Shown here: piece after piece, positions 8,646-12,086 of the stretch
Layout: the number at the start of each line of letters is the position of its first letter
Position numbering within the stretch: position 1 is the first letter of the stretch
Assembly (NCBI GenBank): GCA_019659125.1
Contig: JAIFVX010000001.1
Location: 15,437 to 79,436 of the forward strand
DNA from: Candidatus Pacearchaeota archaeon
GTDB lineage: Archaea; Nanobdellota; Nanobdellia; Pacearchaeales; GW2011-AR1
DNA length: 64,000 nucleotides
Direction of reading: 5' to 3'
The notes under the pieces: generated by a model
The model's database searches: none
Seen by the model: the letters and a program-made list of their open reading frames with translations, nothing else
Told to the model about the DNA's origin: nothing
Made by a program: the position numbers and the translations under genes

Positions 8646-11600
8646 CTAGTCTTTTTCTTCTTTTGAAGGTTTTGTCTTGGTTGCTAAAGGTCCAGTGACT
8701 TTAACCAATAATCCTGGAAGGCCAGTGCCGACGGGAATTGGCTGGTTAAGAAGAATATTCTCAATCACTGAGTTCAGTTCGTCTCGAGCTCCCTGGATAG
8801 TTGCATTGATAAACTGCTTGTCAGGAGTTTCGAATGTCGCACGGGCAAGAATACTTGCCTTGTCTGAGATGATTCCCATTCTCGTGACTCCCTTGACAAC
8901 ACCTGATGAAGTCATTGCGTCAGCAACAAGCTTGAGATGTCTATCATTGATATCTAATCCTTGAGAATCGATAACATGATGGATTTCATTGATGATAGTT
9001 TGGCGAGCAGCTTCTATTCCAAGTACATTTGATACGTCGTGAATGTCATTCGAAGTGATTTTTGTCCTGTCAACTCCCTTAACCTCAAGAATCTCCTTCA
9101 GGTTACTTCCTGCAGTCAAGATGACAAAATCCTTTCCTCTATTGGCTACAACAACCTGTGAAACACCCTTTATTCCAGAGATGATAGTGTCCTTCAATTT
9201 CTCTTTCAACTTGTAGATTGCCTTGAAGTCCATGTCTCCAGCAACAACGGTGATCTTCATGTCATTACCCTTAGTGCTGAATCCTTTTTCATTCAATCGC
9301 TCGATAATTCTTTGTGATCCGACATGCACCGACTTGAGTGCTTTCTGATCAAGGAGCATTTCAATCTTCTTGCTTGCGAAGTCAATCTTTATTTCAGATG
9401 CTATCTCTTTGAGTGTTACTTCTCGTATCTTTTCAGCAATCGTCTTTGCATCCTTATCATTGTTATGTTCCTTGTCAAGGCCTATCTCCATCTGAGGTGT
9501 AGAAGGTTGCTTTCGTGCATCCAAAATTTCAATTAATCGAGGCAAACCAAGTGTAATCTGCATTTCTGCAACTCCTGCATGGTGGAATACGTTAAGAACC
9601 ATTTGCGTCGAAGCTTCTCCAAATGATTGTGCAGTCACTACTCCCTGAGCTTCTCCAGGTGCGACTTTGTCCTGTTTAAGATGAAGGCGAGAGACATCCT
9701 TTCCATCATCTCCAAACATAAACTGAACGATTCGCTCAGATGCATCTCTAACAGTACCATCATATTCAACTTTCAGGTCCTGCAATGCGCTGACGAGTCT
9801 CCTATACAAGTATCCTGATTTTGGAGTTCTTAATGCAGTGTCCATAAGACTGTCTCGTCCAGTGATAGCTCCAAAGAAGAATTCAGTAGGCTTTAGCCCT
9901 CGGAAGAAAGATGACTTGATGAATCCTCGTGATTCAGGGGCAAGGTCTCCACGCTTAAAGAAGGGCAATGTCCTTTCCGTGTATCCAAAGCTGATTCGCT
10001 TGCTTCCTAATGCTTGCTGACCGACGCAGCATGCGATTTGAGTAATATTCAACATACTTCCTGCAGCTCCTGGTGTGATCATCTTGTTCACGTTTCCATC
10101 AACGGGGAAGTTTGCCTTGACAATAGTTCCCACTTCAGTTCTAACCTCGTTCAATACCTGCAATATCTTGATCTCTCGTGTTTCCTCAGCGCTCTTTCCA
10201 GGAAGCAGTGAAAGTGTTCCCTCTTCGTAATGCTTGATTATTTCAGCAGTCTTTCTCTCGGATTCAGCGACGATTTCTGCAGTTAGTTTCTTGACTTTGT
10301 CTGAAACATTGAGATCATGAAGTGAAAGCGTGTATCCTTTTCTTGATAAGTAGATAGTACCTAAAAGGAATGCTTTGTTGATTGCCTCAACAGCAGTATC
10401 ACGGTCGAATTCCTTGTCAATAATCTTCACCATCTCTCCATTTTCAGCTCCAAATGAGTTGCTTCCAGTTATCTCATGAGGAACTTTTATACTTGATCCC
10501 TTAGGAATTATCTGTGCAAAGACTTCAGTTCCGAGAAGTTCTTTCTTTCGTGCAGTATTAATAACATTTGCAGCGAAAAGAAGCTGATCAGCTTCAGCCT
10601 TCATCATGGTAGCCTTTCCAAGAAGATAGTTCCCCGTGACTGCATCCGCAATAGTTCCAACAAGATTCATGTTGTTCTTTGAGGAAATAATATTCTGATT
10701 TACGTCAAGCAATACCTTAGATTCTGCACGTGCCTCTTCAGTCTGAGGACTGTGGATGTTCATTTCATCACCGTCAAAGTCAGCGTTGTAAGGAGCAGCT
10801 GTTGCAGGATTAAGTCTGAATGTTCTTCCAGGAAGAACTCGGACATAGTGGGCCATAAGGCTTTGCTTGTGCAATGAAGGGTGTCGGTTGAATAAAACAA
10901 TGTCTCCATCTCGTAGATGTCTCTCAATCTTATATCCGGGCTGTATTTCAGCGCATAATTCTTCCTTCAGATCAGCAGTAATCCTCTTTCTCTTTCCATC
11001 AGTTCGTATGACATAGTTTGCTCCAGGATATTTCTCTCCCGCATTGATTAATTCTTTCATTACCTCAAGATTTGCAGTCGTTACGCTTTCAGCAACCGTA
11101 ATGATTCGCGCGATTTCAATAGGGATACCAACTTCATTGATGTTGATGTAAGGATCGGGCGATACGACGGTTCTTCCGGAATAGTTGACTCTCTTTCCAG
11201 CAAGGTTATGTCTAATTCTTCCCTCCTTTCCTTTGATTCTCTCAGTAATCGTCTTCAAAGGCTGTCCAGATCTATGTCGTGCAGGAGGGATTCTTGAAAT
11301 ATTATTGTCAAAGAATGTGGTAACGTGGTATTGCAGCAAGTCCCACAGGTCTTCAATAATGACCTCGGGAGCTCCCGCATTGAGGTTTTCCCACAATCTT
11401 TGGTTAGCTCTAATGATATCGGAGAGCTTGTGTGTCAGGTCGTCTTCAGATCTCTCTCCAGTGTCAAGGGTAATCGATGGTCGTACCGTTACGGAAGGAA
11501 CTAAGATGATGGCCAAGACTGCCCACTCCGGTCTGGCAGTTTTAGGATTAATTCCTATCTTCTTCAATTCATCATCCTGGATGCCTACAAGTCTCTCTCG

Positions 11601-12086
11601 TACTTCAATAGGAGAAAGTCGTTTCTTTCCGATCATAAATGTACTTGGCTTTTCTAGTTTTACTCGCTCAATAGCCTCATTGCAGAATGGACACTTCTTT
11701 GCATCTCGAGCTTTCTTAGCACGCTCTGCGGGAGCATAATTCTTCTGCTTCTCTTCGCTGAGAGTCAGTTTACCGCAATGAGGACAGAAGCTTCGCAAGC
11801 ACAGCTCAATTAAAGGAATATACTTTATATGGAAGACAGGTCGTGCAAGCTCAATGCTTCCTGGATGCCCGGGGCATTCTTTTACTCGCTTTCCGCACGT
11901 TCTGCATCTCACTCCTGGATCAATAGCTCCTAATCGCAAGTCCATTAATCCTCCATCAACAGGGAATCCATCAATGTCATACAATTCTGGAGTCACAATC
12001 TTTGCAGAGCTCAACTTCTTGACCTGGTCGGGACTAAGAAGATTGAATTTGAGTGCTCTAACTTGTTTTCTGAAGTGTGTTTGCAT
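8646..12086 (-). CDS. rpoA: DNA-directed RNA polymerase largest subunit, A' and A'' fused in one 1146-aa ORF
   Basis: N-terminus has the A' zinc motif ([20 protein letters not shown]) and catalytic [12 protein letters not shown]; the bridge-helix region (…[18 protein letters not shown]…) is followed without a stop by the A''-type trigger-loop region [19 protein letters not shown] and the A'' C-terminus; start overlaps the rpoB stop (TAATG). Confidence 0.9.
   Translation of the reverse strand: [1146 protein letters not shown]

Follow-up and report, generated by a model that had tools for sequence, protein, structure and literature searches.

Organization of the rpoA locus

We analysed a window of 64,000 nucleotides from a Candidatus Pacearchaeota archaeon, in which the genes for the large RNA polymerase subunits lie together on the minus strand:

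15331..15555, minus strand: rpoH (Rpo5), which opens the rpoH-rpoB-rpoA operon (ORF and sequence)
12086..15334, minus strand: unsplit rpoB (Rpo2), likely start M26 or M27 (Pfam/NCBIfam; the mechanical ORF runs to 15409)
9687..12086, minus strand: A'-equivalent part of rpoA, residues 1-800, with clamp, active site, pore/funnel and bridge helix (PRK08566/TIGR02390)
9669..9686, minus strand: fusion junction, the six-residue linker LHLKQD, residues 801-806 (alignment)
8649..9668, minus strand: A''-equivalent part of rpoA, residues 807-1146, with trigger loop, jaw and C-terminal cleft/clamp (TIGR02389)
8157..8573, minus strand: nusA-like gene with a KH domain, immediately following rpoA (Pfam)

The rpoA gene (8646..12086, minus strand) forms one ORF of 1146 aa plus a stop, with an ATG start and no in-frame stops inside it. 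All five Rpb1 Pfam domains (1-5) are colinear over residues 7-1078 (RNA_pol_Rpb1_2, E = 3e-63), and the NCBIfam A' and A'' models adjoin back to back on the single protein, which scored 1027 bits with PRK08566, the 883-position A' model, and 380 bits with TIGR02389, the A'' model (positions 36-361, matching residues 803-1123). The ORF listing, Pfam and NCBIfam thus bore out the first-pass annotation, which had described one continuous 1146-aa ORF covering A' and A'' without a stop, and downstream of the junction the protein is a genuine A'' with trigger loop and jaw. The classical split architecture of most archaea, in which two ORFs are separated by a stop after the A' tail and an A'' start, was not found here, and tblastn revealed no second rpoA copy in the window. 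The protein is 100% identical to the GenBank entry 'hypothetical protein KW805_00115 [Candidatus Pacearchaeota archaeon]'. Its 1146 aa compare with 880 + 392 aa in Sulfolobus and 906 + 391 aa in Thermococcus, and with 1268-1288 aa in the fused RpoA proteins of Korarchaeota, Bathyarchaeota and Nitrososphaeraceae. An internal restart giving a separate A'' was rejected, as the stretch between residue 748 and the trigger loop lacks Met and no other obvious start lies near the junction.

The neighbouring genes are tightly packed. The rpoA start and the rpoB stop share one base, and the likely rpoB start (M26/M27) overlaps the rpoH stop. That rpoB is also unsplit had been noted earlier, and it is indeed a single ORF spanning both the B'' and B' models; its junction was also compared with split relatives. 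The gene order rpoH-rpoB-rpoA-nusA-S12-S7 places rpoA at its usual position in the archaeal rpoH-rpoB-rpoA operon, and this order, with Pfam RNA_pol_Rpb5_C, is repeated in relatives. No L30e gene lies between rpoA and nusA here, whereas L30e separates A'' from nusA in L001, the closest split relative.

Conservation of the catalytic core

We located the elements typical of the largest subunit of multisubunit RNA polymerases along the fused protein:

11865..11906, minus strand: clamp zinc motif, residues 61-74 (C61, C64, C71, H74)
11769-11786 and 11676-11693, minus strand: second set of clamp Cys pairs (C101, C104, C132, C135)
10767..10787, minus strand: catalytic NADFDGD, the aspartate-triad motif of the double-psi beta-barrel, residues 434-440
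9783..9890, minus strand: bridge helix, residues 733-768, equivalent to Rpb1 810-845 (alignment)
9537..9632, minus strand: trigger loop region ending in GLPR, residues 819-850 (aligns within Rpb1 1056-1151)

All eight zinc-motif residues, together with N434, A435, D436, D438, G439 and D440, were invariant across 21 relatives, and both the bridge helix and the trigger loop are present and colinear with Rpb1, to whose residues 777-880 the protein aligns at a constant offset of 77. The protein is thus a member of the Rpo1/Rpb1/beta' family by its catalytic motif, its zinc motifs and its bridge-helix/trigger-loop arrangement. Because all of these are intact, catalysis by the fused Rpo1 should be unchanged.

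A six-residue linker replaces the archaeal foot

The first-pass annotation had reported that the A' bridge-helix region runs directly into the A'' trigger-loop region, and the peptide that it quoted corresponds to residues 789-839 (nt 9570-9722). Alignment to reference RpoA1/RpoA2 and Rpb1 mapped the junction to residues 801-806, inside the interval of about nt 9620-9720 first proposed. The linker LHLKQD stands where other archaea have the tail at the A' C-terminus, the overlapping stop and start, and the N-terminal region of A'', which together make up the archaeal foot. Alignment to A' ends at residue 854 of 880 in Sulfolobus and 879 of 906 in Thermococcus, and the solved A'' chains align to the protein only from residue 55-59 onward, so that approximately 7 unaligned residues here compare with 26-27 + 55 aa (~81 aa) in these two archaea. 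Relative to L001 the six residues stand against 19 + 41 aa (60 aa), and residues 881-1055 of Rpb1 (175 aa, the foot domain) have no counterpart. The junction therefore falls far short of the combined length of an A' C-terminus and an A'' N-terminus (6-7 aa versus 60-81 aa in split archaea), which points to a fusion with deletion rather than simple stop-codon loss, in agreement with the initial reading of a genuine fusion with linker loss.

Across the clade, the junction follows the consensus DG.DVS.LHL--K..K..PGEA and varies in length by only 1-3 aa. Based on the alignment and this conservation, the six-residue linker is predicted to bridge both flanks. AlphaFold2 modelling of the full protein from a shallow 21-sequence alignment (>=76% identity) gave a mean pLDDT of 52 and a pTM of 0.30, with confidence below 50 for residues 660-849, the junction region included. 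In Pol II the foot lies on the surface, and as a domain it shows little conservation in archaea and bacteria (PMC5389574). We also considered that the first A'' codons might survive in the linker (LHLKQD versus V-MFNQD in the sister), a match too short to support the idea.

The fusion is fixed across a large clade

As the sequence comes from a metagenome-assembled genome, the gene could in principle be truly split, with a stop or frameshift lost or ~160-240 nt collapsed during sequencing or assembly. However, a survey of related genomes, as initially proposed, revealed the same open junction, at 64-79% nucleotide identity, in 74 independent species-level genomes that stem from many projects. 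Their labels read Pacearchaeota, Woesearchaeota, Nanoarchaeota, Nanoarchaeia or simply archaeon, and 62 of the 74 have stop-to-stop frames of 1089-1206 codons. In addition, over 120 clusters of proteins 1140-1160 aa long derive from independent NCBI, JGI, ENA and Logan assemblies. Codon differences against 29 genomes were mostly synonymous (1912 synonymous and 669 non-synonymous, ~3:1) and included no stops. An artefact is thus effectively refuted, and we assign it a next to negligible probability.

The fusion is fixed across a large clade, and the codon pattern shows that rpoA, junction included, is under purifying selection. This selection across the junction lends indirect support to the prediction that a single chain of ~130 kDa is present in the active RNA polymerase. 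No fused gene that retained the foot, as an intermediate might, was found within the Pacearchaeales-type fused clade.

Phylogenetic origin of the fused gene

In a neighbour-joining tree (783 A' columns, 200 bootstraps), a distance method applied to the A' part only of fast-evolving lineages, the fused clade was monophyletic (200/200) and grouped with the split-gene lineages P0129, L080 and P0128 (200/200). The tree nests the fused clade among split-gene Woesearchaeota-like lineages, a position that points to a secondary fusion and not to an ancestral unsplit state. The deep direction of change between fusion and split depends on the DPANN rooting, which is itself disputed. The A' of L001 is 53% identical to the fused protein over the aligned A' region. 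L001 carries separate genes, with an A' ending in TEGGIINVKRIVKEVAANV before the stop and an A'' starting MFNQDLPKK...EEYEAA, which overlaps the A' by 8 nt where LHLKQD stands in the fused gene.

The unsplit RpoA of Thaumarchaeota, Bathyarchaeota and Korarchaeota is usually taken as the primitive state and not as a re-fusion. The gene studied here could likewise descend from an ancestral unsplit gene that lost its foot later, a scenario to which the occurrence of unsplit rpoA in several archaeal phyla, the unsplit rpoB at this locus and the uncertain placement of the DPANN root lend some weight. However, its nearest relatives by both identity and bootstrapped neighbour joining (P0128/L001, P0129 and L080) are split, and the unsplit proteins of Bathyarchaeota, Korarchaeota and Nitrososphaeraceae share only 42-46% identity with it (aligned A' region) and keep a foot of ~80 aa. 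The protein here retains no foot and shows no affinity to such lineages, which group elsewhere in the trees, and Da Cunha et al. also conclude that the fusion is secondary (PMC5484517). We regard this ancestral scenario as improbable.

Foot-less fused RpoA proteins also occur elsewhere (P0124, P0127, P0174, L082 and the eukaryote/virus-like P0222), and an already fused gene might have been acquired horizontally from another DPANN archaeon, a virus or a eukaryote-like source. Yet these proteins grouped with the Pacearchaeota clade in 0/200 bootstraps, show 37-46% identity over the aligned A' region and have different junction sequences, and rpoA sits in its native rpoH-rpoB-rpoA-nusA-S12-S7 operon. 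Such a gain appears highly improbable, more so than descent from an ancestral unsplit gene.

Judged from sequence, 8646..12086 is most probably (about 0.88) the functional Rpo1/RpoA gene of a Pacearchaeota-type DPANN archaeon, which arose by secondary in-frame fusion of rpoA1 and rpoA2 with deletion of the foot. Under secondary fusion, the ancestor would have had split, adjacent and overlapping rpoA1 (A') and rpoA2 (A'') genes, which would have been joined in frame in the stem of the Pacearchaeota-type clade. The joining would have cost the gene the C-terminal tail of A', the overlapping stop and start, and the first 40-55 codons of A'', either through one in-frame deletion or through loss of the stop and later trimming. 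In the single polypeptide, the six-residue linker leads from the conserved segment beyond the bridge helix into the base of the trigger loop, and the surface foot module is gone. Other archaeal polymerases build this module from the segments missing here, and Rpb1 has it in expanded form. That the foot is a peripheral insertion may explain why its deletion was tolerated, and the fusion and deletion were possibly part of a general reduction of proteins and genome in this lineage.

Other fused lineages and implications

At least four lineages carry fused rpoA genes with partial or complete loss of the foot, each grouping with split-gene relatives and not with the other fused lineages:

Pacearchaeales-type clade: groups with split relatives
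P0127/L004: groups with split Nanohalobium
P0130/L005: groups with split P0134
P0174/L006: groups with split P0175

Additional candidates for fused lineages are P0124/P0126 and an Altiarchaeales genome. We give even odds to the proposition that re-fusion of rpoA with partial or complete foot loss is a recurrent result of the shrinking of genomes and proteins in archaea with small genomes. If so, the split or fused state of A would be more homoplastic than assumed when the archaeal tree is rooted, and such proteins would represent natural minimal cellular forms of Rpo1 with a dispensable foot.

Whether rpoA is split or unsplit has served as a rare genomic character in rooting and ordering the archaeal phyla, and each secondary fusion therefore matters for the rooting argument. 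The Pacearchaeota instance is already counted in the literature; our survey adds the removal of the whole foot, the fixation across a large clade and, on an evenly balanced judgement, the occurrence of similar fusions several more times in reduced archaea. As natural deletion mutants, the fused genes indicate that the archaeal foot is dispensable for a cellular polymerase, and the same is indicated for a conserved pore/funnel hairpin in the crown group. In annotations, the fused proteins often carry the label 'hypothetical protein' or 'subunit A'', and they can cause confusion in sets of single-copy markers.

Comparison with known systems

The rpoA fusion in Pacearchaeota has been known since 2017, when Da Cunha et al. 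reported 'a secondary fusion in Pacearchaeota' (PLoS Genet, PMC5484517), and unsplit rpoA has long been known in Thaumarchaeota and Korarchaeota (PMC5484517 among the sources); the novelty implied by the first-pass annotation was thus too high. As far as that report describes it, the fusion concerns the same phylum, the same gene and a single ORF, and nothing essential differs from the gene here, which combines Pacearchaeota membership with nesting among split relatives (neighbour joining, A' only). Its main text gives the fusion one sentence, with no mention of foot loss, clade breadth or other fused DPANN lineages. Our literature searches found nothing specific on rpoA fusion in DPANN or Pacearchaeota beyond that sentence, and no description of complete foot loss or of the further rpoA fusions in archaea with small genomes, at least three of which appear to be independent. 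A 2026 Nanobdellota preprint notes 'RpoA paralogs' only as an obstacle to single-copy classification.

As here, Thaumarchaeota, Bathyarchaeota and Korarchaeota with unsplit RpoA have the complete largest subunit in one gene, but approximately 80 aa lie between its bridge-helix and trigger-loop regions, compared with 6-7 aa in our protein, and identity in the junction query was 39% for Nitrososphaeraceae. Eukaryotic Rpb1 is likewise a single chain, whose residues 777-880 and 1056-1151 align to residues 700-803 and 806-898; it has a 175-aa foot and a CTD, and the fused protein has neither. The Rpb1 foot is required for correct association with Rpb6 and Rpb4/7 (PMC5389574).

Compared with the split Rpo1N/Rpo1C of Saccharolobus (2pmz, chains A/C) and Thermococcus (4qiw, chains A/C), the fused protein has no stop, a junction reduced from ~81 to ~7 aa, and further deletions of ~17-20 aa in the clamp head (after residue 118) and of ~31 aa after residue 540. 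Its domains and motifs are nevertheless colinear with those of the split subunits, with E-values down to 1e-233 for A' and 1e-79 for A'', and the operon context is shared.

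Organization of the rpoA gene and operon

The first-pass annotation had described rpoA as one continuous ORF encoding A' and A'' and rpoB as likewise unsplit, and both observations held. The relevant features of the window, with the operon of the closest split relative found (locus L001, protein cluster P0128), are as follows:

8646..12086, minus strand: rpoA, single ORF, 1146 aa, ATG start
12086..15409, minus strand: rpoB, unsplit ORF, 1107 aa
15331..15555: rpoH, 74 aa, its stop overlapping the likely true rpoB start (M26/M27)
6213-6788, minus strand: 191-aa ORF, no Pfam match
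L001: rpoH, split rpoB'' (with intein), rpoB', A' (with intein), A'', L30e, NusA

In the window protein, Rpb1 domains 1, 2, 3, 4 and 5 all occur in order over residues 7-1078 (Pfam), the subunit A' model PRK08566 scores 1027 bits against a cut-off of 819, and residues 803-1123 correspond to positions 36-361 of the 367 in the subunit A'' model TIGR02389 (NCBIfam). The NADFDGD catalytic motif, the two clamp zinc motifs, the bridge helix and the trigger loop have stayed intact and do not vary. Apart from the shortening described below, the enzyme should function as other archaeal RNAPs do. The AlphaFold model of the protein was poor (pLDDT 52, pTM 0.30).

The first base of rpoA overlaps the stop of rpoB, an ORF to which the B'' model and the B' model both align (Pfam, NCBIfam). 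The likely real start of rpoB (MMKQKN...) lies 25-26 codons inside the mechanical ORF, which overlaps the end of rpoH (15331-15409); the NCBIfam models align to this ORF only from residue 27. Downstream of rpoA follow a NusA-like KH protein, S12, S7, the 191-aa ORF, EF-2 and EF-1alpha; the equivalent operon of L001 is likewise interrupted by small ORFs without assignment (102 aa, 99 aa), and has Intein_splicing matches (Pfam) in rpoB'', rpoA' and S12. The gene for ribosomal protein L30e, usually found between rpoA2 and nusA and present there in L001 (11151-11399), is missing from that place in the window (8574-8645), where nusA begins 72 nt after rpoA.

Conservation of the fusion

In a search of 5.8 billion proteins, the best 120 clusters, drawn from NCBI, JGI, ENA, Logan and Tara assemblies, were all 1122-1160 aa long and 77-82% identical to the window protein. 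We also scanned the junction-region alignment against one genome per GTDB species (541 relatives, best 80 retained) and found the reading frame open through the junction in 74 of these 80, labelled Pacearchaeota, Woesearchaeota, Nanoarchaeota, Nanoarchaeia or just archaeon. Complete stop-to-stop frames of 1089-1206 codons were present in 62 of the 74; one frame, with what is presumably an intein inserted in the trigger loop, reached 1630 codons, nine were truncated at contig ends and two were interrupted far upstream of the junction.

Over the 151-codon junction region, 21-36% of bases differ between the window and 29 of these genomes. Of the codon differences, 1912 are synonymous and 669 non-synonymous (200 and 145, respectively, for the 18 codons surrounding the linker), and no stop codon occurs anywhere. 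An assembly error was excluded by the junction being open in many genomes, with mostly synonymous differences and no stop; the same synonymous excess and lack of stops across diverged genomes indicate, as judged from codon differences, that translation runs through the junction and that selection acts on it.

Extra sequence directly follows the trigger-loop GE(P)xTQM motif in two fused rpoA genes, with ~480 additional codons after it in L079 (Pacearchaeota RIFCSPHIGHO2_01_FULL_37_14, 1829-6718) and a ~500-aa insertion right behind it in cluster P0126 (1658 aa); both insertions are presumably inteins.

Loss of the foot and other reductions

We compared window residues 700-900 with all PDB chains. 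The alignment ends at residue 854 of Sulfolobus A' (880 aa) and residue 879 of Thermococcus A' (906 aa), and begins only at residue 55-59 of the A'' chains. About 7 window residues remain between the A' and A'' matches; therefore, ~81 aa of the normal archaeal enzyme are missing (A' tail, 26-27 aa; A'' N-terminus, 55 aa). Yeast Rpb1 777-880 corresponds to window 700-803 and Rpb1 1056-1151 to window 806-898, and Rpb1 881-1055, which we take from the Pol II domain map to be the foot domain, is without counterpart. The classical foot mutation rpo21-4, at W954 (PMC5389574), falls inside this stretch.

The A' of L001 ends in ...YGDDGLDVSKTEGGIINVKRIVKEVAANV* and its A'' (378 aa, overlapping A' by 8 nt) starts with MFNQDLPKKLEEEAIELSKEARIGDKKKEVLKRVKEEYEAAKINPGESIG...; comparison of these ends with the window indicates that LHLKQD (residues 801-806, nt 9669-9686) stands for 60 residues of L001. 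The interpretation as fusion with linker loss was thus also correct, and the lost "linker" is the entire archaeal foot. Throughout the clade the linker follows the consensus DG.DVS.LHL--K..K..PGEA and differs in length by just 1-3 residues.

Two further stretches of typical A' proteins are missing from the window protein, ~17-20 aa after residue 118 (clamp head) and ~31 aa after residue 540. The latter segment is Cys-rich (C..C....C..C), followed by a hairpin (DAYVxIKDGELxxGVxD) that appears conserved in yeast Rpb1 too. In the pore/funnel region (window residues ~528-556, nt ~10419-10505), this segment with its conserved hairpin, C..C....C..C...DAYLSIKDGEL in the fused clade, shortens stepwise within the clade (L056-L077). 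Six genomes (L056-L058, L073-L075) have 58-62 aa and intermediates have 43 or 38 aa; the crown group, to which the window belongs, has 29 aa, and a single genome has 20 aa. These lengths form a graded series of natural deletions.

Direction and mechanism of the change

In an all-against-all representative search (1.84 billion proteins, 50%-identity clusters), all clusters above 55% identity were fused, namely P0121 (1181 aa, with PIN77526.1, labelled Woesearchaeota, among its members) and two fragments. Next came the split A' proteins P0128 and P0129, with 53% identity each across the aligned part of A'; the other clusters listed, including fused Bathyarchaeota and Korarchaeota proteins, were 35-50% identical across that part. 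In a neighbour-joining tree (783 A' columns, 200 bootstraps), the fused clade was monophyletic (200/200) and grouped with split P0129, L080 and P0128 (200/200). L080, from a "Woesearchaeota" genome, has separate frames for A' (861 codons) and A'' (382 codons). The simplest reading of these sequence relationships is that the genes fused secondarily, on the stem lineage of the fused clade.

Over the B''/B' boundary, rpoB of the window (12086-15409, minus strand) reads ...KKFTEAGLGKEGEKDVFFNGRFIG. Since rpoB is split in L001 (1223-5999), the closest split-rpoA relative, and in the fused-rpoA loci L003 and L004, the unsplit rpoB may also be a secondary fusion, without deletion.

In split relatives, rpoA1 and rpoA2 adjoin, overlapping by a few bases. 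One in-frame deletion of ~160-240 nt, removing the rpoA1 3' end, the overlap and the rpoA2 5' end, would yield the window gene in a single step; stop loss followed by trimming would be an equally possible route. No fusion intermediate was found inside the fused clade, and P0130, from an unrelated fused lineage, retains part of the foot. Deletion of the foot was probably tolerated because it is a peripheral surface module, weakly conserved outside Pol II (PMC5389574).

Possible recurrent fusion in other archaeal lineages

At least four other archaeal lineages also have a fused, foot-poor rpoA, among them a MAG with the label Nanohaloarchaeota and a genome of Altiarchaeales:

L003 (GCA_040960315.1): split rpoB, 1158-aa fused rpoA
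L004 (RLG14493.1, labelled Nanohaloarchaeota): split rpoB, 1168-aa fused rpoA
L005: unsplit rpoB, 1178-aa fused rpoA, partial foot kept
L006: unsplit rpoB, 1145-aa fused rpoA
L082 (Altiarchaeales): fused rpoA, linker ~20 aa

In all five the foot is short or absent and the junction sequences are unlike one another; these fusions appear independent of that in Pacearchaeota. Nanohalobium rpoA is split, whereas that of L004 is fused. By neighbour joining of the A' part, fused proteins tended to pair with split ones (P0127 with Nanohalobium, 154/200; P0130 with P0134, 183/200; P0174 with P0175, 164/200), and all foot-less fused proteins formed one clade in 0/200 bootstraps. Because the junctions differ, fused genes tend to pair with split ones and a joint clade is never recovered, this distance tree of fast-evolving sequences suggests at least four independent rpoA fusions in archaea. 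The representative search also returned P0222 (1125 aa), a short single-chain Rpb1-like protein with a eukaryote/virus-like bridge helix and no foot (GKDILKLN-KIEAGTAVG).

Our literature search found no paper describing multiple fusions in archaea. We put the probability that rpoA re-fused repeatedly among reduced archaea, with the foot being lost, at about one half (0.5); if true, the A split would be weakened as a rare genomic character, and natural minimal Rpo1 variants would be on offer for structural study.

Comparison with known unsplit subunits

The window rpoA, from a DPANN archaeon, is a clean, conserved case of reduction at the protein level. Da Cunha et al. 2017 (PMC5484517) have already published the fusion for this phylum, as "a secondary fusion in Pacearchaeota", and GenBank already lists the protein (100% identical to [quoted passage not shown], encoded on a 575-kb contig). 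Unsplit rpoA is also documented in Thaumarchaeota, Korarchaeota and Bathyarchaeota (PMC4084955, PMC5484517); unlike the window protein, to which they are not near kin, these subunits retain ~80 aa separating one conserved region from the other.
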